A stretch of DNA of 63,589 nucleotides, filler included, from Squatina squatina (lineage: Eukaryota), in NCBI GenBank assembly GCA_031763465.1. It is 3 parts of 3 records of this genome, joined end to end, with 100 filler letters (N's around TTAATTAATTAA, not from the genome) between each part and the next. Parts side by side here need not be neighbours in the genome. Positions count along the whole stretch, not along the records: positions 1 to 30,560 come from JARFOE010000222.1; 2 more parts are not named here. One strand, given 5' to 3'. The translations under genes were made by a program, and so were the position numbers. Of the stretch, positions 1,989 to 35,989 are shown in pieces; position 1 is the stretch's first letter, and each line of letters begins with the position of its first letter. The notes under the pieces were generated by a model that did not search any database, was not told the origin of the DNA, and was given only the letters and a program-made list of their open reading frames with translations.

Positions 1989-4020
1989 GGACTGTGACCC
2001 CGGGTACGGGACTGTGACCCTAGGTACCCGAGTGCGACCCCGGATACGGGACTGTGACCCCGGGTACCTGAGTGTGATACCGGGTACGGGACTGTGACCC
2101 CGGGTGCACGAGTGCGGCCCCGGATACGGGACTGTGACCCCGGGTGCACAAGTGCGACCCCGGATACGGGACTGTGACCCCGGGTGCACGAGTGCAACCC
2201 CAGATATGGGACCGTGACCCCGGTATGGGTCTGTGACCCCGGGTACGGGACTGTGACCCCGGGTACGGGACTGTGACCCCGGGTACAGGACTGTGACCCC
2301 GGGTACGGGACTGTGACCCTAGGTACCCGAGTGCGACCCCGGATACGGGACTGTGACCCCGGGTGCACGAGTGCAACCCCGGATACGGGACCGTGACCCC
2401 GGTATGGGTCTGTGACCCCGGGTACGGGACTGTGACCCCGGGTACCCGAGTGTGATACCGGGTACAGGACTGTGACCCCAGGTACCCGAGTGAGACCCCG
2501 GGTATGGGACTGTGACCCCGGGTACCCGAGTGAGATACCGGGTACGGGACTGTGACCCCGGGTACGGGACTGTGACCCAGGGTGCACGAGTGCGACCCCG
2601 GATACGGGACTGTGACCCCCGGTGCACGAGTGCAACCCCGGACACGGGACCGTGACCCTGGGTACGGGACTGTGACCTCGGGTAGCCGAGTGCAACCCCG
2701 GACACGGGACCATGACCCCGGGTACGGGACTGTGACCCCGGGTACCCGAGTGCGCCCCCGGGTACGGGACTGTGACCCTGGGTAGCCGAGCGCGACCCCG
2801 GATACGGGACCGTGACCCCGGGTACCCGAGCACGCCCCTGGGTACGGGACTGTGACCCCGGGTACCCGAGTGCGGCCCTGGGTACGGGTCTGTGACCCCA
2901 GGTACCCGAGTTAGACCCCGGGTACGGGTCTGTGACCCCGGGTACGGGACTGTGACCCCGGGTACCCGAGCACGCCCCCGGGTACGGGACTGTGACCCCG
3001 GGTACCCGAGTGTGGCCCTGGGTACGGGTCTGTGACCCCAGGTACCCGAGTGAGACCCCAGGTACGGGACTGTGACCCCAGGTACCCGGGTGCGACCCCG
3101 GGTACGGGACTGTGACCCCGGGTACGGGACTGTGACCCCGGGTACCCGAGTGTGATACCGGGTACGGGACTGTGACTCCGGGTACCCGAGTGCGGCCCCG
3201 GGTACGGGACTGTGACCCCGGGTACCCGAGTGAGACCCCGGGTACGGGACTGTGACTCCGGGTACCCGAGTGCGGCCCCGGGTACGGGACTGTGACTCCG
3301 GGTACCCGAGTGCGGCCCCGGGTACGGGACTGTGACCCCGGGTACGGGACTGTGACCCCGGGTACGGGACTGTGACCCCGGGTACCCGAGTGTGATACCG
3401 GGTACAGGACTGTGACCCCGGGTACCCGAGTGCGGCCCCGGGTACGGGACTGTGACCCCGGGTATGGGACTGTGACTCCGGGTACCCGAGTGCGGCCCAG
3501 GGTACGGGACTGTGACCCCGGGTATGGGACTGTGACTCCGGGTACCCGAGTTCGGCCCCGGGTACTGGACTGTGACCCCGGGTGCACGAGTGCGACCCCA
3601 GCTACGGGACTGTGACGCCGGGTATATGGGTGCGACATCGGGTACGGGACTGTGACCCCAGGTACGGGACTGTGACCTCTGTGTCCGGGACTGTGACCCC
3701 CGGTATGGAACTGTGGTCCCGGGTCCGGGAGTATCACCCCCGGGTCTGGTACTGTGGCCCCCAGGTCCGGGAGTATCACCCCCGGGTCCGGGACTGTGAC
3801 CCCCGAGGTCCGGGATTATCACCCCCGGGTCCGGGACTGTGACCCCGGGTCTGGGACTGTGACCCCCGGGTCCGGGAATATCACCCCCGGGCTGTGACCC
3901 CCAGGTCCAGGAGTATCACCCCCAGGACCGGAACTATGACCCCCAAGTCCGGGACTGTGACCCTCGAGTCCGGGAGTGCGAACCCCGAGTCCGGGAATGT
4001 GACCCCCGGTACGGGAGTAT
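1989..4020. repeat. GC-rich tandem satellite: 20-bp units A (GGGTACGGGACTGTGACCCC) and B (GGGTACCCGAGTGCGGCCCC and variants), about 100 units
   Basis: Periodicity is directly visible. The array degenerates into ~21-bp GGGTCCGGGAGTATCACCCC-type units after ~3680. It explains all the Pro/Gly/Arg-rich ORFs between 1655 and 4187. Confidence 0.97.
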
Positions 4021-4780: not shown

Positions 4781-4802
4781 TATAAGTATTTTTATTTGCT
4801 AG

Positions 4803-4925
4803 GCCCTGGAAGCGTGTAAAGATGCTGGTTTGGTGAAGTCGATTGGTGTGTCAAATTTCAATCGCAGACAGTTGGAGCAGATCCTGAACAAACCAGGCCT
4901 GAAGTACAAGCCAGCAGTAAACCAG
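4803..4925 (+). CDS. AKR1D1: AKR1D1-like (delta4-3-ketosteroid 5-beta-reductase) exon, 123 bp
   Basis: ttgctag|[41 protein letters not shown]|gtactg. Canonical splice sites; the [11 protein letters not shown] motif is typical of AKR1D/1C. Splices in frame to 6576-6685. Confidence 0.82.
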
Positions 4926-4980: not shown

Positions 4981-6330
4981 CAGATTGAGTGACACCTTCA
5001 CCCTAAAGGAGGCCTTCCTGACTGGCTATACCTTCCACCACTTACCCCACAGTAGCGGTGTGCCTCTTATCACCAAATCACACCTTGGTCTGTTCCACTA
5101 CTCCTCTGGAACCTTCTCCTTTGAGCATCTCACCTTGCTCCATCCCTCTCACCACTCATTTAAAATCCTCAGTCTCTACCGCCCACCCAAGTTCCATGCC
5201 AATTTTTTCATCAACATATCTTCACTGCTTTCCTCCCTCAGCCTCTGCACCGAGTGACTTCTCATCCTCGATGATTTCAAACTCCATCTCAAGTCATCAT
5301 GTTCTCTCCCTCCTCTGAATTCACTACCCTCCTATCCTCCCTTAATCTCTCCCTCTATATAAACTCCCCTGTCCATATTGGCGACCACATCGTTGACCTT
5401 GCCATCTCATGACCTCGCTACTCCCATTGTGTCAATCACAGATAAGGCCATGTCTGATCAATTCCTTGTATCACTCTCCACCCACATCCCACTGCCCCCT
5501 CTCAACCTCACTTCCTTCTATGTCTGCCCCTGAAAAAACTCTCACCCAAATCACTTACAACTGCACTTTTTTAAATTCCCAACTGTCTAGCCTTTGGCCT
5601 GCCATTCAGCATGACACTTCTGCAGTGACCAATATGTTCAATCACACCCTCCTAGTCCCGATTAAAATCATTACACTTTCTCACCCTGGCCGTTCCTCCG
5701 GTACGGCCCTCATCTCCGCTCCCTTAAGTCAAAGGGACGCAGACTTGAACCAGACGGCAGACAACTGGTTTAGCCATTCACTGCCAGATCGGGCTGGCCA
5801 CATAAAGCATTATCAGGTCTTGTTTTCCTCTGCCAAAACTGCTCACTATTCCAGGATCAGCCTGGAATGCAAAAAAAAACCTCCATATTTTTTTCTCCAC
5901 TACAAACCATCATCTTAAACCCCTCTCCTGTGCCTCCTCCACCCCCAACAAGTGCAAGGAGCTCATGGACTCGTCTCTAAGATTGAGAGCATTCGATCAG
6001 CTGCCTCTGCCACCTCCCTCCCTCCCCCTAGTCCGCAGGGCCAAACTTCCCCTAAGGTTCCCCCTGCACTAGCCCTGAACTCACATCTTTCTCCAATTTG
6101 CCCGATCTCCCTCATGCCCTCACTGAGTTTTTCTTGTCCATGAGACCTGCCTCCTGCTCCCTTGACCCTATTCTTACCAAACTGCTGACCACCCAATTTC
6201 CGTTCCTAGCTCCCATGTTAGCTGATATTGTCAACGGTTCCCTTTCCTCAGATACTGTCCCCCCTACCCTTGAAATCTGCCACCATCACATGCTCCTCAA
6301 ACATTCCACCCTTGACACTCATGTCCTTGA
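4981..6330 (+). mobile_element. Degenerate L2-clade LINE ORF2 fragment (endonuclease to start of RT) in the AKR1D1 intron
   Basis: Frameshifted motifs SFEHLTLLHPSHHSFKILSLYRPP, LILDDF and MRPASCSLDPILTKLL...LADIVNGSLSSDTVP. Homologous to the copy at 53690-54433. Confidence 0.8.
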
Positions 6331-6400
6331 CTCCCTCCTCCCCGATTCCTGATTCCTTGACTCCCCCGCCCCGACTCCCCCCGTTCCCGAATCCTGCTAA

Positions 6401-7282: not shown

Positions 7283-7788
7283 ATAGTTCCTCAGTGGGTA
7301 GCACTCATGCACCTAAATCAGAAGATCATGGGTTAAAGCCCCACTTCAGAGTCCTGGAGTGAGCTTGAACTCAATCTGGCCAGCATGGAGTGAGAGTGCT
7401 ACCCACTGAGACAGACTCCATGCCGACACTTCAGTACAGACCTGAAGGATTGTTGCACTGTCGGAGGTGCCGTCTTTCAGGGGAGATGTTAAACCGAGGC
7501 CACATCTACCCTCTCAAGTGAACATTAAAGATCCCATAGCACTAATTATAGAAGAGCAGGGGTGTTCTCCCTGGTGTCCTGCCCAACATTTATCCCAAAA
7601 CCAATATCACTAAAACAGATTACATGTTGATTTATCTCATTGCTGTTTATGGGAGCTTGCTGTGGCTGCTGCGTTTCATACATTACAACAGTGATTGCAG
7701 TTCAAAAATACTTAATGGGCTGTAAAGCATGTTGGGACATCCTGAGATCATCAAAGACATTATATAAATGTAAATCTTTCTTTTTTTC
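7283..7788 (+). mobile_element. SacSINE1/DeuSINE-type SINE, near full length, interrupted by an inverted SINE head
   Basis: tRNA-like head, then the Deu core ggaggtgccgtctttc...ttaaaccgaggc...aaagatcccatagcact...gaagagcagggg, then the tail ggctgtaaagc...tatataaatgtaaatctttc. Confidence 0.8.
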
Positions 7789-7854
7789 ACGTCCACTACC
7801 TTATGTGTATCACAGTTTTGCCTCAGAAAGGAGGGCCATCTCAAAACACAGCAC

Positions 7855-9653
7855 ATGGCTGCCAGAGCTGTTAGACTGGGCCTCCGGCAGATAGTGAGAG
7901 AACCAACACGAGAGAAAAACCTACTTGACCTCATCCTCACCAATCTACCTGTCGCAGATGCATCTGTCCATGAGTGCATTGGTAGCAGTGACCACCGTAT
8001 AGTCCTTGTGGAGATGAAGTCCCATCTTCACACAGAGGACATCCTCCATCATGTTGTGTACCACTACCATCGTGCTAAATGGGATAGATTCAGAACAGAC
8101 CTAACAGTTCAAAACTGGGCATCCATGAGGCACTGTGGGCCATCAGCAACAGTAGAATTGTATTCCATCACAATATGTAACCCCATGGCCCGGCATATCC
8201 CTCACTCTACCATTCCCATCAAGTCAGGGGACCAATACTGGTTCAATGAGAGGTGTAGAAGAGCATGCCAGGAGCGGCATCAGACGTACCTAAAAATGAA
8301 GTACCAACGTGGGGAAGCTGCAACACAGGACTACATGCATGCTAAATAGCGACGGCAGCATCCTACAGACAGAGCTAAGTGATCCCACAATCAACGGATC
8401 AGATCAAAGCTCTGCAGTCCTGCCACATCCAATCATGAATGGTGGTGGACAATTAAACAACCAACTCCATGAATATCCTCATCCTCAATGATGGTGGAAC
8501 CCAGCACACAGGTGGACAAGGCTGAAGCGTCTGCAACCATCTGCAGCCAAGTGCGAGTGGATGATCCATCTTGGCCTTCTCCTGAGGTTCCCACCATCAC
8601 AGAAGCCAGTCTTCAGCCAATTCGAATAACTCAATGTGATATCAAGAAATGGCTGAGTGCATTGGATACAGCAAAGGCTATGGTCCCTGGCAACATCCCA
8701 GCTGCAGTGAAGACTTGTGCTCCAGAACTAGCCGTGCCTCTAGCCAAGCTGTTCCAGTGCAGCTACAACATTAACATCTACCCGACAATGTGGAAAACTG
8801 CCCAGGTATGTCCTGTCCACAAAAAGCAGGACAAATCCAATCCAGGCAATTACCGCCCCATCAGTCTACTTTCAATCCTCAGCAAAGTGATGGAAGGTGT
8901 CGTCGACAGTGCTATCAAGCAGCACTTACTCACCAATGACCTTCTCACTGATGTGTAGTTTGGGTTCTGCCAGAACCTCTCGGCTTCAGACCTAATTACA
9001 GCATTGGTCCAAACATGGACAAAAGAGCTGAATTCCAGAAGTGAGGTGAGAGTGACTGCCCTTGACATCATTTGACTGAGTGTGACATCAAGGAGCCCTA
9101 GTAAAAATGAAATCAATGGGAATCAGGGGGGAAACTCTCCACTGGCTGGAGTCATACATAGCACAAAGGAAGATGGTTGTGGTTGTTGGAGGCCAATCAT
9201 CTCAGCCCAGGACATCACTGCAGGAGTTCCTCAGGACAGCGTCCTCGGCCCAACTATCTTCAGCTGCTTCATCAATGGCCTTCCCTCCATCATAAGGTCA
9301 GAAGTGGAGATGTTCACTGATGATTGCGCAGTGTTCAGTTCTATTTGCAATTTCTCAGAAAATGAAGCAATCCATACCCACATACAGCAAGACCTAGACA
9401 ACATTCAAGCTTGGGCTGATAAGTGGCAAGTAAAATTTGTGCCACACAAGTGCCAGGCAATGACTATCTCCAACAAGCGAGAGTCTGAACGCATCCACTT
9501 GACATTCAATGGCATTACCATCGTTGAATCCCCCATCACGAACATCCTGGGGGTCACCATTGACCAGAAACTTAAATGGACCAGCCACATAAATACTGTG
9601 GCTACAAGAGCAGGTCAGAGGCTGGGTATTCTGTGGCGAGTGTCTCACCTCCT
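7855..9653 (+). mobile_element. Degenerate CR1-group LINE ORF2 (endonuclease C-terminus plus reverse transcriptase)
   Basis: Motifs PTREKNLLDLILTN, SDHRIV, NYRPISLLSILSKVME, GVPQDSVLGP, MFTDD and ILGVTIDQKLKWTSHI are spread over three ORFs broken by stops and frameshifts. Confidence 0.9.
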
Positions 9654-9753: not shown

Positions 9754-10458
9754 GTACAGAATACACCGTAAAGATTGACCATAAAAGTATGAAATTCCCC
9801 GAGATAAGAAACAGCAAAATTATGGATTTTCTTTGGCTCTCCATCTCAGAGTCACTGCGACTCTCCCCACTCCTGTGACCTTGGAGTCTCCTGCGGGCTC
9901 TGCTGGCCACCAAGATGTGTCTGACTGTTAAAGCATTGAGCAGCAGAATGAGAAAAATTGGGACACATGGGGTGAGAACATAATGAAGGAACTCGATGGC
10001 TGCCCACTTTTGTGAGTACCGAACCCACGTTGTTACACGACAAAACCAGGGTTCATTCAGAAGCCAATATTGATTTGTTAATATATAATACCAATAAATG
10101 TTCTTTAAACAGCTAATCACAGACACAGTTCCTAGCACCATAGCTGTCATTTTTTCGGTGCAATATTTAGCTTTCAACTTCCAACAACAAATTGCCACAA
10201 AACGATCAAATGTGAAACTGACGGTGAACCAGACAGCACAGTCTGTGGCTGCATAAAGCAGGATAGCATGGATATTACACAAGGGGATTTTCTGCATGAA
10301 CCAAAACTGACGCCTGTAAATAATCGGAATATGCCTCAGTATCATATCGAGTATAATGACCAGTAGATCTGCTGCGGCCATGGCCACCAGGTAACGAGTG
10401 ACGCATTTGGAGAGTCCACACTTTCCCCGCGACAGGATCACAATCGTCAATAAATTAA
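9754..10458 (-). CDS. GPR139/GPR142-like class A GPCR, main coding exon (TM1 end to TM6; 3' end lost in gap)
   Basis: Acceptor ttccgttcctcacag| followed by (V)NLLTIVILSRGKCGLSKCVTRYLVAMAAADLLVII...VWFTVSFTFDRFVAIC...LILLLNALTVRHILVASRARRRL...SIILLFLISGNFILLW. The frame is intact up to the gap. Confidence 0.85.
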
Positions 10459-10824
10459 CTGTGAGGAACGGAAATAAACAGGGAAATTATACACCAGACT
10501 GCGATCAAAGTTAACAGTTTGACTGAGTAATTACTGAGCTTTGCCATTGTATTATTGTTTCCAATGATTTATTGAAATGATTGCAGCTGTGACAGTGTTT
10601 TCTTCTGGAGGTGGGGGTTGCCATTCGAAGAGGACAAACTTATATGGAAGTTAATAGACTAACACATGAGGAACAGCAGTTTGTCAGAGATCAGTTGAAG
10701 GTTGCTACTGAGCTGACAGTATTGTTCATGGTCCAGTGTAAAGAGATGAGTGTTGCAGCAAATAATGAAGATCTTAAGAGCTAAGCTTCAGTTTGGAAGG
10801 TAGACCTGAGCACAATTTCTGGAA

Positions 10825-15062: not shown

Positions 15063-17218
15063 TGTACGGGACAGACTGGATGGACCAATATATCTTAACC
15101 TGTCTGATTGTATTTTGTATTACTTTTGAAATGTAGTCATTGTTACATATGCAGTAGCCAAATTACTTGCAGCAAGGTCCCACATATAACCAATAATTGA
15201 ATGACCGAGTAATTTGTTTTTACTTTTCTGTGAACTTAGTTTAGATAGTGAATAAAGAAAATTTGCATTGCGTTATATAAGTGGAGAATTTTCATTGCTG
15301 TGCACATTTTCTTAATTTGTGTATTTAATTAGAATGTTTCTCAATGTGATTGCTACGAAAGAGTTTTGACTTGACTTTGGAAACCTGGGCTTAGTATTTT
15401 GATGATTGGATGGTTCTCCTGCCAGAGCTTGCAAATTTGACCCTGCAAATTTAGCAGTCCCGATGACACCGGAGGGCAGTAGCACTCTTGGCTTTCCAGT
15501 GTAGTCACTTTTATCATAGATAAATAACTAAGTACAATATAAACAAAAAATCCTCACAGTAATAATTGTTCTCTGAAGGGGTGTCTTTTACTTGTATACA
15601 AGCCTGGTTTATCTGATTTCCATGTGGAGTAGCCTGGATTTAAAAAAAAATAATCGCTGCCTGAAGTGCAGGTCGCCATCCTGAAGATTTCAACAGCGCA
15701 TTCTGCACTGCGCGTTTAACTCAATGACACCAAATGAAAGAATCATGCGGGATTCCTGGCCCAATCAAATGGAGCGGGTCAGTTAATGTCACTGATGACT
15801 CATTTTCAGTGCAGAGATTTAAAGCAGCCTTGCACACATTTCATTTGAAGGTGGCTATAGGAGTGTTCAAGGTGCTTNNNNNNNNNNNNNNNNNNNNNNN
15901 NNNNNNNNNNNNNNNNNNNNNNNNNNNNNNNNNNNNNNNNNNNNNNNNNNNNNNNNNNNNNNNNNNNNNNNNNNNNNACTGCCAATTTCAAGCTTGACAT
16001 GAGAGATCAGTCCAATGCCATGTCACAATCAGTTTCAAAAAGCAAAGTACAAAACTGAGCATGTCTACTGCAAAGTTGATGATGCATTCTGGCCCAAATA
16101 TCAAGCTGACAGGAAAATGTAACAAAATGTATGAACATAAAGACAAATACCAAAGTTTAAAATTTGAAATTCTGGAACAGTGAGTACAGTCAGCCTTTGG
16201 TTTTCCAGCATGGCAGCAATTAGGGTTGGTCAAAAGAATTGCGGCAGTCACTGACATCAATGACAAAGATGATCAAATAACTGTGTGCATGGCATCCTCT
16301 CCTGTCGTGAGAAATAAGACTCAGTGAGAAAATAGCCTCTCAATAAGAGTCAACCAGAAGATCAAACTGAACCTGAAATTATGAGACATGAATCCGAACA
16401 GAGACATCCAAGTTGTAAACAAAAGCCACCTGATTGATTGGGCTTATAGTCTATCTGTGCAATGATATAATTGTATAATAGTAATCCATATGTAGAGTAT
16501 TACATTTTGAATCGGTTTATGAAATAATTTCTGAAAGAACGGGCGGCGGACTGATTTGTTAAAGTTAAAGCCATCTATGATCAGAGATACAATCAATATA
16601 TAAGCTCCCTGTGTTCTGAGAACGAAGGAGGCATTTTGATGAAGCTTGATACATGCTCCAGACAGTCTACTGAGAGTTATTATTCAATAAGGTGACAAAC
16701 CTCTTCTCCTGGTTTCTTAAACTGTGATATAAACCAATGCTGCTGACTCCATATGACCATTTTGAGTCAAAGCAGTAGCATTGCCTTCAGTAGTCCAATG
16801 CTAAAGTGACTGAATACTGTGTAAAGTTTGGTCATCCACAGTCTTTGCTTGGCAGCTCTTTGGCTTTATTCCAAGGAAAACTAACTGATCACCGATTCAT
16901 AGACATCCATTATATCAACCTCCTTTTACTTGGGTTTGAATAGACTGATATTTAAACTCAGTTACACAATTAACTGCATCCCTCTTGAATACTCTGATTT
17001 AGCACTCTTCCACTTAAACATGAGAGGTACGTTAGACTTCTAATGGTGTGTTGGAAGAGAGGCACTTGTGGTCGTGCCCCTGGAGGACCAGCTCTAGGTA
17101 ATGAGTACACAGTGGTTGTGGAGGTGAGGCTCATGAAGCAGTTAGTGATATTGGTCTAATCATGGTCCCTGACGATAAAGCACCAGTTTTGAAAGTGTTT
17201 CTCTTGTGATTGATTTAG

Positions 17219-17350
17219 GGTGGATTGCTCTGGGAGGAGAGTCGCCAGTCTGGATGTTGATGGAGTCATTAAAGTGTGGGCATTCAACCCCACCATGCAG
17301 ACTAAGGCCACCATAATGTCCAAATCACAGCTGCTTTCCTTGGAGTGGGC
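17219..17350 (+). CDS. WDR91: WD repeat-containing protein 91 exon (3' end lost in gap)
   Basis: tgatttag|[45 protein letters not shown], nearly identical to the recalled WDR91 WD40 segment. Confidence 0.9.
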
Positions 17351-17450
17351 NNNNNNNNNNNNNNNNNNNNNNNNNNNNNNNNNNNNNNNNNNNNNNNNNN
17401 NNNNNNNNNNNNNNNNNNNNNNNNNNNNNNNNNNNNNNNNNNNNNNNNNN

Positions 17451-17990
17451 AGAATGCTACCAGATACTGCTGAGACAGTATCAGTGATCCAATCAATAGC
17501 AACTTTAGTAGCAGAAGCTAACCCAAGTATTGCCTCTATAATACCTTGACTTATAGCCTTAAGTCAATCTGGGGCTTGCCAAATATCATCCAATTCAATT
17601 TGCGACAGCAAGTGTTGTGTCCTTTTAATAGTATCCTCGACTGAGTAATTGGTAAGGTAAGAATCAGTTCCATGCCCTGTAACTGACTAAGAACTGTGCT
17701 AAATTTGCTAAATTTGATAGATGTATAGCTAATACTGGGGGCATAGGAATTCCTAGATCTAGAGGATTTACTGTATTGGAGAGTGTGTCCACAACAGGTG
17801 ACATCTCTGGAGGATGCTATCATCCAAGTGCGTTTGTTCAGCCCACAGTTGGAACATTTGGAAGCTGTAATGACTGCATAGGATCCATTCCCCAAAGAGA
17901 AATGTCACTAGTAATCTGGTCTAACTGATGTAGAGATGATCGGGCAGTTTGCCTTATCTGAACCTTTTCCACATTGCTTAAATTTTTCCC
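17451..17990 (-). mobile_element. env: Endogenous foamy-virus-like (spumaretroviral) env fragment, TM ectodomain, pseudogenised
   Basis: Reconstructed translation: EKFKQCGKGSDKANCPIISTSVRPDY**HFSLGNGSYAVITASKCSNCGLNKRTWMIASSRDVTCCGHTLQYSKSSRSRNSYAPSISYTSIKFSKFSTVLSQLQGMELILT/TNYSVEDTIKRTQHLLSQIELDDIWQAPD*LKAISQGIIEAILGLASATKVAIDWITDTVSAVSGSI. Colinear with recalled foamy virus Env (CGNSSDTSDCPV...LKNGSYLV...SCFG...KIKGIKIEVT...TPAWIQQL). Confidence 0.8.
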
Positions 17991-18090
17991 NNNNNNNNNN
18001 NNNNNNNNNNNNNNNNNNNNNNNNNNNNNNNNNNNNNNNNNNNNNNNNNNNNNNNNNNNNNNNNNNNNNNNNNNNNNNNNNNNNNNNNNN

Positions 18091-18419: not shown

Positions 18420-18613
18420 AGACTTTCCACAGCTGAATGAGAAGAATGTGGAGAGCAATAACCAGATGGCGTTCGATACTGCCGAACGGGAGTTTGGAAT
18501 TTCCCCCATAATGACAGGGAAGGAGATGGCATCGGTGGGAGAACCAGACAAACTGAGCATGGTCATGTACCTGTCGCAGTTCTACGAAATGCTCAAGGAC
18601 ACGACCCCAGAGG
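18420..18613 (+). CDS. MICAL3: MICAL3 calponin-homology-domain exon, 194 bp
   Basis: cacctgcag|[66 protein letters not shown]|gtgagc. [26 protein letters not shown] matches recalled MICAL3. Confidence 0.87.
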
Positions 18614-24361: not shown

Positions 24362-24568
24362 CTAGCTGCTGTCCTTTGAGTCCTCCAAAAAAGATGTGGC
24401 AGTGTATGTTGTAGGTAGCCCTTGCCCAGCTGCTCTGACGCCCGGAGCCACTTGCCTGGTGCACCCGGTACAGATGTACTCCTCATTCTCTGCCATCTCA
24501 GAAGAGACACCCACACAGACCTGGTGGAACCATTCGTCACAGCCTCCATCGCACTGCACCCAGTCAAC
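24362..24568 (-). CDS. KDM5A: KDM5A last coding exon (second half of PHD3, with stop codon)
   Basis: gtgctgcag|[36 protein letters not shown]...FLEDSKDSS* matches the KDM5A PHD3 and C-terminus. Confidence 0.92.
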
Positions 24569-26171
24569 CTGCAGCACACAAACCCAGTAAATGTTACTCT
24601 CAAAAGACTTGGCTTTTCTGTCATACAACACACAAGTTGTGCTGCCCAATAATTTCAACAGGAAGCAAAACAACAACAGGAATGTAGTGCAGGCAGACTG
24701 TGTGCATGTTGCACGTGATGAAACGAATTGAAGAAACATGCTCACAGCAGATCTAACCCACTGTCACTTGCACCAAAAAGGACTTTTAAAATTGAGTCTG
24801 ATACGAACCAGGCTTTAAGAAATGTGTCACATGTCTAGTCCGCCATAAAAAAAAGCCATCACCTTCATCGTACATGTCAACCAACGGTGTTGCACAGGTC
24901 TGGGCTAGGCATCAGTGTTTGCCAACAACATTCAGTTCAGAATGATCCGCGCTCCCCTCAATGCGACTCCTATTGAGTCCCAATAGTAATGGAGTAATTC
25001 CAACCACTGTATACTGTGTTTACGATTCTTACAAGGCCAGGAGTTCCTGATGACTGTACGCAGTGCTTCATAAGCAGACGTCAGATAGGACATGAAAGAG
25101 AGCGCTGGAATGGATGGCAGTGAAGGGAAGAGGCAAAGGGATAGAAGTTGAAAGCATTGCTGGGGGTTGGGGGGCGAGTGGAAGAATATAGCTGCTTGAA
25201 TTGGAAGAGAGTCTCAGAGGGTGAGGAGGTGAATGGAGTACAATGTCTGTGAACTAGGTCCAGCAAAGGTAGAATACCTCTGTGAACTGAGGCAAAGTAG
25301 TTAGACGCAGGAATGTGACTGTGACAGTAACTATTGGGTAAATGATAGTGTGGTTAAGCTATTGAAAATAAAATCCACTGTTTTTCCTTTGAAGATAAAA
25401 AATTTAATAATTNNNNNNNNNNNNNNNNNNNNNNNNNNNNNNNNNNNNNNNNNNNNNNNNNNNNNNNNNNNNNNNNNNNNNNNNNNNNNNNNNNNNNNNN
25501 NNNNNNNNNNNNNNNNNNNNNNNNNNNNNNNNNNNNNNNNNNNNNNNNNNNNNNNNNNNNNNNNNNNNNNNNNNNNNNNNNNNNNNNNNNNNNNNNNNNN
25601 NNNNNNNNNNNNNNNNNNNNNNNNNNNNNNNNNNNNNNNNNNNNNNNNNNNNNNNNNNNNNNNNNNNNNNNNNNNNNNNNNNNNNNNNNNNNNNNNNNNN
25701 NNNNNNNNNNNNNNNNNNNNNNNNNNNNNNNNNNNNNNNNNNNNNNNNNNNNNNNNNNNNNNNNNNNNNNNNNNNNNNNNNNNNNNNNNNNNNNNNNNNN
25801 NNNNNNNNNNNNNNNNNNNNNNNNNNNNNNNNNNNNNNNNNNNNNNNNNNNNNNNNNNNNNNNNNNNNNNNAAATTAATATAAATAATTAGTTTTTCACC
25901 CATTAATAATCTACTCAAATATCAAGTTCACTAGATCTGAACAGACAAAAGTCCAATCGTGCTGTGACATGACCAACAAACATACTGCTCCCAGTTGTAA
26001 AAGGAGTCTAAGTAACAGACCAGTGTCTGTTTTAGTGAAGGTGCTTGATAAATTACTAAGACTGCTACAGGCAAGGAACTAAGCCACAGGCAGATTAAAG
26101 CACAATGTGACTTGCTCCTGGCTCTAACCAGCACTGGTTGCCACTGGTGCTGCAATATCGTAACTGCTCAC

Positions 26172-26345
26172 CTCTTCTCCACATGGCCGCTGACAGTTCA
26201 ACGCAGCACAAACAGCATTTTCATCCTCTGAGTCCTCTGCTGCAGACCAGTCCTCCCGAGCTGGTAAAATCACTTTCTTTTCTTTCTTCTTTTCTACCAT
26301 TCTCTCGCCACACTCTTTGGATTTCTCTTTTTTCTTCTTCTCTCT
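26172..26345 (-). CDS. KDM5A: KDM5A penultimate exon, 3' portion only (5' part replaced by foreign sequence)
   Basis: [58 protein letters not shown]|gtgagc splices in phase 0 to VDWVQC at 24568, completing PHD3. An in-frame TAG at 26348-26346 marks the break. Confidence 0.88.
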
Positions 26346-26364
26346 CTATCCCGTCTCATCCATT

Positions 26365-26564
26365 ATGGCTGCTTCCAAGGCGGAGTCTCAAAAGGTCTTT
26401 GAGAAACTCAAGACCAAACCCGCAAACAAGGCACGAGTTGCCCCTCCTTCCTTGAAAACAATACCTGCTAATTGCTTTGCGTTAGGCCTGCTTCGATTGC
26501 GGTACCAAGAATCCTACCTGGTCGTCGGTGCCTTTGGGTATTTACTTATGTCTGGACTGTTCGG
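26365..26564 (+). CDS. GLO3: Fungal-type ArfGAP (Glo3/ARFGAP2-3 family) 5' end; exons 26365-26430 and 26486-26564+
   Basis: MAASKAESQKVFEKLKTKPANK | 55-nt intron (gcacga...gctaat...ttag) | ACFDCGTKNPTWSSVPLGIYLCLDCS. It has the ArfGAP CxxC-x16-CxxC finger. Intron size, branch site and NPTWSSVP are ascomycete-like. Confidence 0.8.
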
Positions 26565-27569
26565 NNNNNNNNNNNNNNNNNNNNNNNNNNNNNNNNNNNN
26601 NNNNNNNNNNNNNNNNNNNNNNNNNNNNNNNNNNNNNNNNNNNNNNNNNNNNNNNNNNNNNNNNNNNNNNNNNNNNNNNNNNNNNNNNNNNNNNNNNNNN
26701 NNNNNNNNNNNNNNNNNNNNNNNNNNNNNNNNNNNNNNNNNNNNNNNNNNNNNNNNNNNNNNNNNNNNNNNNNNNNNNNNNNNNNNNNNNNNNNNNNNNN
26801 NNNNNNNNNNNNNNNNNNNNNNNNNNNNNNNNNNNNNNNNNNNNNNNNNNNNNNNNNNNNNNNNNNNNNNNNNNNNNNNNNNNNNNNNNNNNNNNNNNNN
26901 NNNNNNNNNNNNNNNNNNNNNNNNNNNNNNNNNNNNNNNNNNNNNNNNNNNNNNNNNNNNNNNNNNNNNNNNNNNNNNNNNNNNNNNNNNNNNNNNNNNN
27001 NNNNNNNNNNNNNNNNNNNNNNNNNNNNNNNNNNNNNNNNNNNNNNNNNNNNNNNNNNNNNNNNNNNNNNNNNNNNNNNNNNNNNNNNNNNNNNNNNNNN
27101 NNNNNNNNNNNNNNNNNNNNNNNNNNNNNNNNNNNNNNNNNNNNNNNNNNNNNNNNNNNNNNNNNNNNNNNNNNNNNNNNNNNNNNNNNNNNNNNNNNNN
27201 NNNNNNNNNNNNNNNNNNNNNNNNNNNNNNNNNNNNNNNNNNNNNNGGGTGGAAAAAGCTCCCAGACATTTCTTACTCCTGACTTCCTTTTTAAACTTGT
27301 GTCTCCTGGTATTTGAATGATTTCTCATAATAAACAATTTTCCTTGTTAATCTCAAAACCTTTAATCAGATGATCATGAAGCCCAACCTCCTTAAACTTG
27401 CCTTGTATATGGAGATATTTTACTGCCTGTGTCATACCCCTCAGAGGCTTGGCCAGAAACAACTTATTTCCACAGTGCGAAGATGATAAAGGACTGCCCA
27501 TCTTTCCTCTACAAGAAAGCTGAAGGGATAGAGAGAAAGGAAAATCAGGAAAAGGATCATAGGAGATAC

Positions 27570-27790
27570 CTCTAATATCTGCAGAAATCTGTCCTCAGCA
27601 GGAAGGTGTGTAGCCTGCAGTATTCTCCAAATGTGCTGTGTCTCATCTAGGGATACTTCCAGAAGATCTCCCACCATCATCAGCTCCTCCAGCTGAACCT
27701 TTGCGCTGTGTGACAACTCCAGGACAGGGGGCTCCAAGCTTCGCGGCACCAATGGCGTCTTACGGGGTTGTTTCCGAGGAGTTCCTGTAC
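27570..27790 (-). CDS. KDM5A: KDM5A internal exon, 221 bp
   Basis: ttctcccag|..[73 protein letters not shown]|gtatct. Confidence 0.92.
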
Positions 27791-28464
27791 CTGGGAGAAT
27801 ATATAAGTTAACAAGTGGTATCTGTCAACTATATAGTCAGTGAGCAGCATGTCAACCACGAAGGTTACTTTGATTTGATTTTAAAGATAACCTTGTAATA
27901 GCAATGAGCAATTGCATGTCTAAGCCATACTCGGATTAGAAACTGGACACTCCACCCCCCACAAGATCCTGCCCCCCGCCCAAATCTTTTCCCGGCACCT
28001 CGCTACTCCCGAGATCCGGCAGCCTATCCCACCCCCGAAGAATTGGCATAGTCAAGCCTATTATGGGTATGAATATGGGCAGCAGAAAGGCTTAGGTAGG
28101 GGCAGAGGTGATGTTATAGAGATGGAAATAGGCAGTCTCTGTGCTGGAGAGGATTCAGGGTTGGAATCTTGGTTCTGGTTGAACAGGGAACAGAAATTGC
28201 CAACAGTCTACTTCAGACTGAGACAGTGGCCGGTGCAAAGATAGAGTTTTTGCAGAGGCTGAAGATAATGGTTTCAGTCTTCACAATATTTAGCTGAAGA
28301 AACTATGGCTCACGTGACATTGGGCATCAGAGAAACAGTCTGACAACAGAGGCAGTGGAGGGGCNNNNNNNNNNNNNNNNNNNNNNNNNNNNNNNNNNNN
28401 NNNNNNNNNNNNNNNNNNNNNNNNNNNNNNNNNNNNNNNNNNNNNNNNNNNNNNNNNNNNNNNN

Positions 28465-28635
28465 AGCCCCCTAAGAATCTTATATGTTTCAATAAGATCT
28501 CCTCTCATTCTTCTAAACTCCAATGAGTAGAGTCCCAACCTTTCCTCATAGGATAATCCCTCCATACCGGGATTGTACCTTGTCGAATGCCTTCTGGAAA
28601 TCCAAATACAATACATCTACTGGTTCCCCTCTATC
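28465..28635 (-). mobile_element. CR1 RT fragments (internally deleted)
   Basis: VDVLYLDFQKAFDKV is joined directly to PGMEGLSYEERLGLYSLEFRRMRGDLIETYKILRG. Confidence 0.75.
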
Positions 28636-29293
28636 CAATCGAAGCTAACTGCATCACCCAAAATGCTGTGAAAAAAACTTCAACTGTAATTTTTGCCATT
28701 TGCAACTGATATTTTTAAGGTCTATTATTTTATGCATAGTAAAGTTTTTCAATTACCTTTTTCACAGCAACAAATATCTGCATCGAATTGTGTTCCCTGT
28801 ATTTTAATACCCTCAGTGTAGTTTTTGCTTGAAAGCCTCAGCCCTTCCCAAAACTCTGAACTTTGACTGGAAATGTTCCCTCAGTAGAACTGTTTAGAAC
28901 TTCCAAAAGTATCTCTGCATTCAGAGCATCTGCACTTGGTTCATCAACAAATTGTATCAGCTGGGCAATTTCTTCCATTGTTATACAATATGCTGATCAC
29001 TCAATGACTAAGAGCTCAAATTGAACCAAGACATGGCTAAGACCTGCAGACAAACTTAGTTACTATTGACACGATGTAACACATGAATTCACTGAGGTGT
29101 TGAGGTGAATGTATACAACTCAACATCCCAGTAGACTTGCTAATCTTGCAGATTCATTACACTAACTGACATGAATCACATTAAGTGCGTGCACTGGAAA
29201 GATAGGGGCTGGAGCCTGCAATTTACTAATCTCTATCGCTCATAGATGAAGCAGATTAAGGTTTGCTTTGCAGCAGTTATTCCCAATGCATCA

Positions 29294-29974
<681 letters not shown>

Positions 29975-33938: not shown

Positions 33939-34650
33939 GTAATTTCCTTTATTTAGATTTAGGACTCTCGTTTCTGATTCAACGACTTCACTTTCCATCT
34001 TCATGAAGAATTCTAGCATGTTATGATCACTCTTCCCTAAAGGACCCCTCACAAGCAGATTGTTGATTAACCCCTTCTCATTGCACAGTACCAAGTCTGG
34101 GATAGCCTGTTCCCGAGTTGGTTCCTCAATGTATCGGTCTAAAAAAACCCATCCCATACACACTCCAGGAATTCATCCTCCAGAGTATTATTGCTAATTT
34201 GGTTTGGCCAATCTATATGTAGATTAAAGTTACCCATGATTACTATTGTAATTCCCTTATTGCATCCCTAATTTCCTGTTTAATGCCATCCCCTACATTA
34301 CCTCTACTGTTTGGAGGCCTATAGACAACTCCCACCAGTGTTTTCTGTCCCTTGATGCTTCTTAGCTCGACCCAGACTGATTCTACATCTTGATTTTCTG
34401 AGCCAATGTCCTTTCTCACTATTGCACTGATTTCATCCTTTACTAGCAACGCCACCCCACCTCCTTTCCCTTTTTGCCTGTCCTTCCTAAATATCGAAGA
34501 CCCTTGGATATTCAGCTCCCAACCTTGGTCACTCTGCAGCCACGTCTCCGTAATCGCAACTATATCATACCCGTTTACATTTACTTGCACTGTTAATTCA
34601 TCGACCTTGTTGCAAATACTTCATGCATTAAGATACGATACTTTCAGACT
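33939..34650 (-). mobile_element. CR1 LINE ORF2 APE endonuclease region (relatively young)
   Basis: GYDIVAITETWLQ...IFRKDRQKGKGGGVALLVK...VGVVYRPP...EPTREQAIPDLVLCNE...LGKSDHNML. A CR1 3' tail on the same strand lies at ~32762-32840. Confidence 0.9.
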
Positions 34651-35989
34651 CATCTTTTTAACATTTTTAAGCATCTTTACTTTTTTTTTGTATTGAAGCA
34701 ATATTTAATTATTTCATTTGGATTACTAGACACTAGTGACACAGGCAATGGAGGAAACCACAACCCAGATCATTCTGTCTTCACAGAGAAAAAGCTATTG
34801 AGCATTGACACATACCCATGAGGGGAAATTTGGAAGAAATTTACATTAAAACCTGTAGCAGAGCAGACTTATTTTGAAAGCAACAGGATTTAGAAGGTTG
34901 TTCTCTTATGTTTGTACGGAAATGTTACTGTACAATCCACAGGGTTAATCGTCATAATCTATCTTTTTGACACACAAGTTCTATATTGCAGACTGCAGTT
35001 AACTTTTTGCTTGGCTAAGAATTGCTGAATGTATGAATTAGCCAACAAACACAGTTTGATTTGCTGTATATAATACATCACCTTAATGATTAAGTTATGC
35101 AAATGTAGTAATTAGTGCTTATATTTCTCTAAACACTTGATTAAAATGCTGGGGTAGCACTTTTGCCTTTAGCTACTAATTTGACGAGATTATCTGTGTT
35201 CATTTTATTGACTGAATTTCATTAATACAGCAATACAGCTTTTTTTCCCCTTTTACATGATATTCATTAGCATAATTCTATACACTAATGGTTGCTAAGA
35301 TAAAATGGCAGTAAAAAATGTTGCTTGCACCACAAGATGCAGCAGTCGTTAGTGCTCAGCATGTTCAAGGATGTTTTACAGTTGTTCCAGCTCCGTAATA
35401 GTCTGCTGTGCTGCAAAAATATAAATCATGATAGTTTCATTGAAACTTTTTCATGCTTCTTAAAGGACAACTCAACCTTAATATTAATCATGGCTGACAC
35501 TTATTCTTACTGTTATCTGTTACCTCCCTTTTTGTACCATGCTGCTGATGTTTAACTCTGTAGGATGACAAAATAGAACTGTGAGCTTGCCAAAACGTTC
35601 AGTATCGGTGGCCATAAGCTCCTCTATGTGTTATGTTCATCCCATGGGCAAAGCCATATAATCTTAGAATCATACAGCACAGAAAGAGGCCTTTTGGCCC
35701 ATTGTGNNNNNNNNNNNNNNNNNNNNNNNNNNNNNNNNNNNNNNNNNNNNNNNNNNNNNNNNNNNNNNNNNNNNNNNNNNNNNNNNNNNNNNNNNNNNNN
35801 NNNNNNNNNNNNNNNNNNNNNNNNNNNNNNNNNNNNNNNNNNNNNNNNNNNNNNNNNNNNNNNNNNNNNNNNNNNNNNNNNNNCATTACAAGGAAGACAA
35901 GCATTTACAGATGCAACCTGAAGCCATTGTGGCGTTACTTGGGCATGGCATAGATTTGTCAGAGAGCAGTGGCTAGGGAGGCTGAGCAC

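Follow-up and report, generated by a model that had tools for sequence, protein, structure and literature searches.

The minus strand of positions 17451–17990 in the analysed DNA of Squatina squatina (63,589 nt in total, referred to as the window) bears a broken, non-coding piece of a foamy-type env gene. This piece is likely one of many copies in a shark genome going back to an old germ-line foamy virus, which probably spread within the genome. A germ-line state is supported by the three stop codons and one frameshift in the window copy as well as by the many copies found when DNA runs from three further organisms were examined.

Reading frames and homology of the env fragment

The env piece makes up a 540-nt contig (17451–17990, coding sense on the minus strand) flanked by 100 N on either side, confirming the location between two gaps described in the first-pass annotation. 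The gap at 17991–18090 conceals upstream env, that at 17351–17450 the remainder of env and whatever comes after, and contigs of relatives extend past both ends of the piece. Two minus-strand frames can be deduced which in total represent about 175 residues of the foamy Env TM subunit. The upstream frame (17656–17988) corresponds to foamy Env residues of about 776–884, i.e., the end of the Ig-fold domain II and the HRB segment, and retains four invariant cysteines as well as L-x-NGSY, while the downstream frame (17453–17655) corresponds to residues of about 885–949 with the alpha-C helix and the stretch preceding the membrane anchor. As read from the sequence, the upstream frame is interrupted by an adjacent stop pair (TAG and TGA, 17905–17910) and the downstream frame by a TGA codon (17564–17566); in between, the profile match leaves the upstream frame at residue 111 and resumes in another, placing a frameshift at approximately 17650–17660. 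The first-pass reading with stops at 17910–17905 and 17566–17564 and a frameshift near 17655 is borne out by these observations. The window copy is too broken to make Env and has no protein function. Its CpG observed/expected ratio is 0.18, compared to values between 0.22 and 0.36 in exogenous foamy env, which is depleted too.

The identity as foamy-type Env TM, proposed previously from motif spacing, is upheld by Pfam, PDB and profile searches and by extension of the match across the frameshift. With stops treated as X, the upstream 113 residues match profile positions 772–879 of the Pfam family Foamy_virus_ENV (PF03408) at 40.4 bits (E 1.1e-10), hence passing the curated cut-off of 27 bits. 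A better match to a cellular protein or another Env family was looked for in Pfam at E ≤ 10, and the upstream frame did not hit any other viral envelope family, the sole additional match being a zinc finger at E 0.7, attributable to chance. Likewise, PF00523 (fusion glycoprotein F0), by which a Lokiretrovirus or F-type Env would be recognized, did not match the 113-residue part searched at E ≤ 10. All three PDB sequence matches at E ≤ 10 are foamy Envs (8RM1, 8RM0 and 8OZH). Moreover, a profile built by us from 34 foamy Envs matches one out of 240 window reading frames at 41.6 bits, with the next best at 0.9, no second foamy Env piece was found in these 240 frames, and the window contains no second copy.

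When searched alone, the downstream 72 residues gave no match in Pfam, PDB or BLAST, and in an ungapped test at the expected place, which is a weak one, 92 of 1000 shuffles reached the score of this frame. Reading through the break as X, however, extends the profile match from 776–884 to 776–949 and increases the score from 43.0 to 58.4 bits, a gain of about 15 bits which was attained by none of 500 shuffled tails (maximum 51.2 bits) nor by either alternative frame (41.8 and 42.2 bits, respectively).

Of the columns invariant in the 34 foamy Envs, 12/37 are retained in the env piece, including 4/4 cysteines, and both the PDB alignment and our profile show motif spacing nearly without gaps compared to foamy Env. 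The spacings given in the first-pass annotation, counted by eye, agree with chimpanzee foamy Env, with CG-x7-CP followed by 17 residues to NGSY, a proline 17 residues past the C-x-G glycine and a glycine a further 21 residues on. Identity to 14 reference foamy Envs amounts to only 17–24%, whereas the references are mutually at least 46% identical. In a tree of the query and these 14 out of 34 references, picked for diversity, the branch of the env piece has a length of 2.97 versus at most 0.57 for the reference tips; since this 15-row tree is unrooted, has no outgroup and shows deep-node support of only 27–58, it documents a long branch but cannot place the piece. With a structural model (pLDDT 62), foamy Env takes ranks 1–3 in searches of both PDB (best E 0.029; RSV F comes fourth at E 3.0) and BFVD (best E 2.4e-4), these matches being weak and not independent of the foamy alignment supplied to the model.

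Protein searches with the upstream piece for relatives of 199–2000 aa, a weak test, yielded 0/25 candidates at E ≤ 1, and in a metagenome scan with the env piece 534 pattern matches were obtained, none of which was confirmed. Two matches among 1.84 billion representatives were composed of 6 and 11 stretches, respectively, to the Cys-rich start and were taken as chance.

Host and genomic surroundings

A shark as host, as annotated, is corroborated by the window's GPCR piece, for which 120/120 of the best matches listed are from sharks, among them the genera Heterodontus, Heptranchias, Pristiophorus, Scyliorhinus and Mustelus. The direct neighbours of the env piece are host exons, namely a WD40 piece at 17214–17350 and a calponin-homology (CH) piece at about 18440–18600. 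On the minus strand of these two flanking pieces, no retroviral Pfam family was detected, and the 540-nt contig does not bear gag, pol, LTR or an accessory gene. As no gag, pol or LTR is linked, the virus behind the env piece is one that we infer, and the term spumaretrovirus is based on Env. The earlier assignment to a fossil spumaretrovirus therefore holds for the foamy-type Env, while pol and gag are unlinked. Judged by its sequence and on the Env criterion, 17451–17990 is an endogenous foamy virus; membership based on Pol lies outside the 540-nt contig, as do the LTR-gag-pol-env-accessory layout, the leader peptide and its Trp pair, the two furin sites and the internal promoter.

The WD40 piece is cut where DNA and RNA contigs of relatives continue. 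Hence, sequence is missing within the gap and it was the scaffolder that placed env here, making its position beside WDR and CH-domain genes uncertain. The whole window consists of 42 short pieces with a median of 1.1 kb, and most of the spacers between them are exactly 100 N long. Exons of unrelated genes adjoin each other, such as PKD/REJ-like (2–1039), GPR139-like (9755–10486) and KDM5-like sequences (24362–29974), and by eye also aldo-keto-reductase-like (about 4800–4920) and ArfGAP-like ones (about 26486). The window resembles a fragmentary assembly that was scaffolded along a reference, and its gene neighbourhood is unreliable. Besides, a tandem-like repeat of 68% GC at 1989–3915 gives rise to long spurious ORFs in three frames of the minus strand, and decayed LINE-like endonuclease/RT frames are visible by eye at 7774–9653, 5000–6350 and 33939–34700.

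Copies in relatives and mode of spread

Copies were compared in public sequencing runs of relatives, with one run each of organisms A, B, C and D and none of the window's own reads. In no public run were as many as half of the env piece's words present; runs with a small share (20/24 runs listed) derive from seven organisms, of which E, F and G share 2/49 env words, and none of the listed runs is on record as RNA. The host gene in A–C is about 86–95% alike to the window, which makes these organisms likely related elasmobranchs. In their DNA runs, 69, 22 and 129 env contigs, respectively, were found with 30/30 bins covered and summed depths of up to 382, 81 and 407, whereas the adjacent host piece is represented in the same runs by only 2, 4 and 4 contigs, with one contig at each place, at depths of up to 27, 9 and 12. 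Although contig depth does not give an exact copy number, this disparity demonstrates that the env element is multi-copy in A, B and C. The further copies that the first-pass annotation suggested looking for are thus abundant in these runs and lacking elsewhere in the window. The variant copies in the three DNA runs are 84–91% alike and carry their own indels. At two of the stop codons most contigs of the relatives lack the window letter, and length differences at the frame break are seen in many of them, indicating that those breaks are likely the window copy's own; the third stop lies outside the best 40 of 219 difference rows.

In the RNA-like run X13 of organism D, the WDR exon is covered at a depth of 171 while the intron is uncovered, as expected of spliced RNA. 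Two contigs of the env family (window 17488–17950) are present in this run at a depth of 6–7, about 4% of that of the host exon, which is a weak sign of low transcription of the family in organism D, either by read-through or on its own.

For the 8 longest pieces of each DNA run, the divergence of env from the window amounts to 11.6% in A, 9.0% in B and 15.6% in C and that of the alignable host piece, exon included, to 10.4, 10.7 and 10.2%, respectively, figures that are censored at 80% likeness and derive from overlapping pieces. From this similarity, the env family appears to be about as old as the hosts' split. The best 40 of the 219 difference rows represent 39 distinct sites, of which 37 are left after excluding two inside stops. 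Among these 37, 14 are private to the window, whereas the remaining 23 are close to fixation in one or two of the relatives but missing from the rest, implying that copies multiplied separately in each host line. Only 9/23 of these relative-specific sites are third codon positions, a small and selected count in which sites of organism B rest on 1–5 contigs and those of D on one. Between exogenous simian foamy viruses, third positions account for 82–86% in the matching region at 7–10% divergence (Fisher p < 0.001 versus 9/23) and for 68% at 19% divergence (Fisher p 0.015). The low third-position excess favours copying within the genome from relaxed templates over reinfection. A foamy virus, its provirus presumably equipped with foamy gag and pol, would have entered the germ line of sharks at an early time, and within each host the copies would have multiplied inside the genome after env had lost constraint. 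With slight preference, we consider that this multiplication proceeded by intragenomic copying or duplication and not by repeated infection.

The same identity might come with another history, in which one infectious foamy lineage entered several shark lineages separately after their split. The copies are indeed structured by host, with several sites uniting the window, B and D versus A and C; env of organism B (9.0%) is closer to the window than its alignable intron (13.2%), and env of A is more distant (11.6%) even though the host piece of A aligns most fully (22/30 bins). These values, however, stem from overlapping pieces censored at 80% likeness, and the host-diagnostic sites show little of the third-position excess (9/23) that characterizes infectious foamy viruses. 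Moreover, over equal time the divergence of an exogenous retrovirus should greatly exceed that of host introns, which also counts against separate entries. We therefore regard this history as rather unlikely. Even less probable is a foamy-type env on a non-foamy retrovirus, i.e., an env-swapped recombinant or a shark ERV of the snakehead-like/class III or loki-like type that has an F-type envelope. Such a carrier could be accommodated by the common fold of foamy Env and paramyxo-/pneumovirus F (PMC11468914) and by the env piece not being linked to pol, but a PF00523 match at E ≤ 10 is missing here while loki Env matches this family at 2.2e-7 (PMC7947760), the motifs align with those of foamy Env almost without gaps, and no look-alike by DNA words occurs in the other windows compared, the latter excluding close relatives only.

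Co-option as a functional shark env gene, with the window copy being a pseudogene or mis-assembled, has a precedent in the foamy env co-opted in geckos (PMC6955096). It would also agree with the two family contigs at depth 6–7 in run X13, where the WDR exon but not the intron is covered, and with the window letter at two stop codons mostly missing from the relatives' contigs. An intact single-copy ORF under purifying selection, however, is not what we observed, as four breaks, multiple copies and 9/23 third positions were found. Each species possesses many variant copies bearing their own indels, RNA depth is about 4% of that of the host exon (171), and neither a relative of 199–2000 aa among the 25 candidates (a weak test) nor a shark protein among the 34 Env matches, in a search limited by shared words, turned up. 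Accordingly, co-option is judged highly improbable. As to chance match, contamination or assembly artefact, the isolation of the env piece, flanked by gaps as one of the window's 42 pieces, might raise suspicion, but the Pfam E value of 1.1e-10 and the presence of the env family in sequencing runs that four studies produced from four further organisms render such an origin practically negligible, and a laboratory foamy vector is ruled out by the four coding breaks and 17–24% identity. The old germ-line foamy virus with subsequent spread within the host genomes hence is the reading we prefer.

Comparison with known foamy elements

According to its title, a recent report (Wang, Chen, Cui 2023, J Virol 97:e0181622, PMC9972966) presents an endogenous foamy virus from cartilaginous fish that roots to the foamy viruses of the other vertebrates. 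The env piece fits the description in this title, on which the likening is based. The published work reportedly covers sharks and rays, with canonical foamy motifs kept. In our literature search for a shark foamy Env, no description was found, but the 2023 report was outside its reach, so that absence from print is unproven.

The coelacanth element CoeEFV was identified by its pfam03408 match, the criterion of Han and Worobey 2012 (PMC3386198). Its Env (Dataset S4 therein) has CGK and SLGNGSY in common with the window and, by eye, the same two TM sequons are absent. Counting by hand over about 145 gap-trimmed columns of the available sequences resulted in about 45 identities between window and CoeEFV versus about 37 between window and a sloth element, so by eye the window env appears slightly nearer the coelacanth element. 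CoeEFV differs, however, in showing about 30% identity, in residing in another host class and in being a near-complete provirus versus one 540-nt piece here.

Mammalian Env gp130 (8RM0, 8RM1, 8OZH and the 34 proteins) is collinear with the env piece over 776–949 and has the cysteines, NGSY, HRB and the alpha-C pattern in common with it. When numbered as in the structure of gorilla foamy Env, where HRB is assigned to 845–884 and alpha-C to 886–902 (PMC11468914), the piece comprises the domain II end, HRB, alpha-C and the stretch before the membrane anchor in collinear order. By homology, the intact protein would be a fusion subunit of class I resembling foamy gp48, and the part preserved here would form the domain II end and the HRB/alpha-C arm zipping along the central coiled coil, as described for foamy Env, in which HRB unwraps before zipping (PMC11468914). 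Of the TM sequons, the middle one is kept (Asn 808) while the first and third are absent (no Asn at 782 and 833); by order, counted by eye, the missing ones are N13 and N15, reported as essential in prototype foamy virus (PMC7828637). Decay of the window copy could alternatively account for their absence. The piece thus differs from mammalian Env in lacking N13 and N15 and in its 17–24% identity, and it falls outside the mammalian foamy genera with their at least 46% identity and both sequons. Two full-length foamy Envs from Logan contigs (P0157 and P0158, 981 and 983 aa) show 49 and 45% identity, respectively, to chimpanzee SFV over residues 640–988 and group together (support 81); P0158 is the sole member of its cluster and may represent an undescribed foamy virus.

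Among fish elements, the teleost foamy-like env is described as having no detectable homology to foamy Env (PMC5210030), only pol is shown for elephant-shark CmiFLERV (PMC5512871), and catshark ERV-Spuma.0-Sca, with an env CDS of 1326 nt, groups with teleost elements (PMC10699275), pfam03408 being mentioned nowhere in two supplements of the latter paper. All of these have fish hosts and foamy-related pol, and, going by these sources, the window piece differs from them by its foamy-type Env. Further related work is available (PMC8922424, PMC12386078, PMC10581153, bioRxiv 2023.10.17.562709).

The possibility of a new lineage raised in the first-pass annotation is thus narrowed, as a cartilaginous-fish foamy virus was already published in 2023, going by its title, and the piece is one of many copies, though probably a new member. 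Most likely, it represents a new host record or a sub-lineage of the published shark foamy viruses, whereas an undescribed env-bearing true foamy lineage, common to several shark lineages and with the deepest-branching foamy Env, seems doubtful. The case for a marine origin of retroviruses more than 450 million years ago rests mainly on foamy viruses (PMC5512871), and in the fish elements described up to 2017, env was presented as undetectable or without foamy homology (PMC5512871, PMC5210030). The 2023 report, judging from its title, probably removes most of the surprise in this respect, while host range, age and the TM glycan pattern may remain of interest. If the undescribed lineage were real, insertion sites common to several sharks would give a direct minimum age of foamy Env in these hosts, roughly that of their split, and, together with the coelacanth element, the shark piece would mean that two TM glycans which mammalian foamy viruses need were dispensable for the fusion protein of the foamy ancestor.
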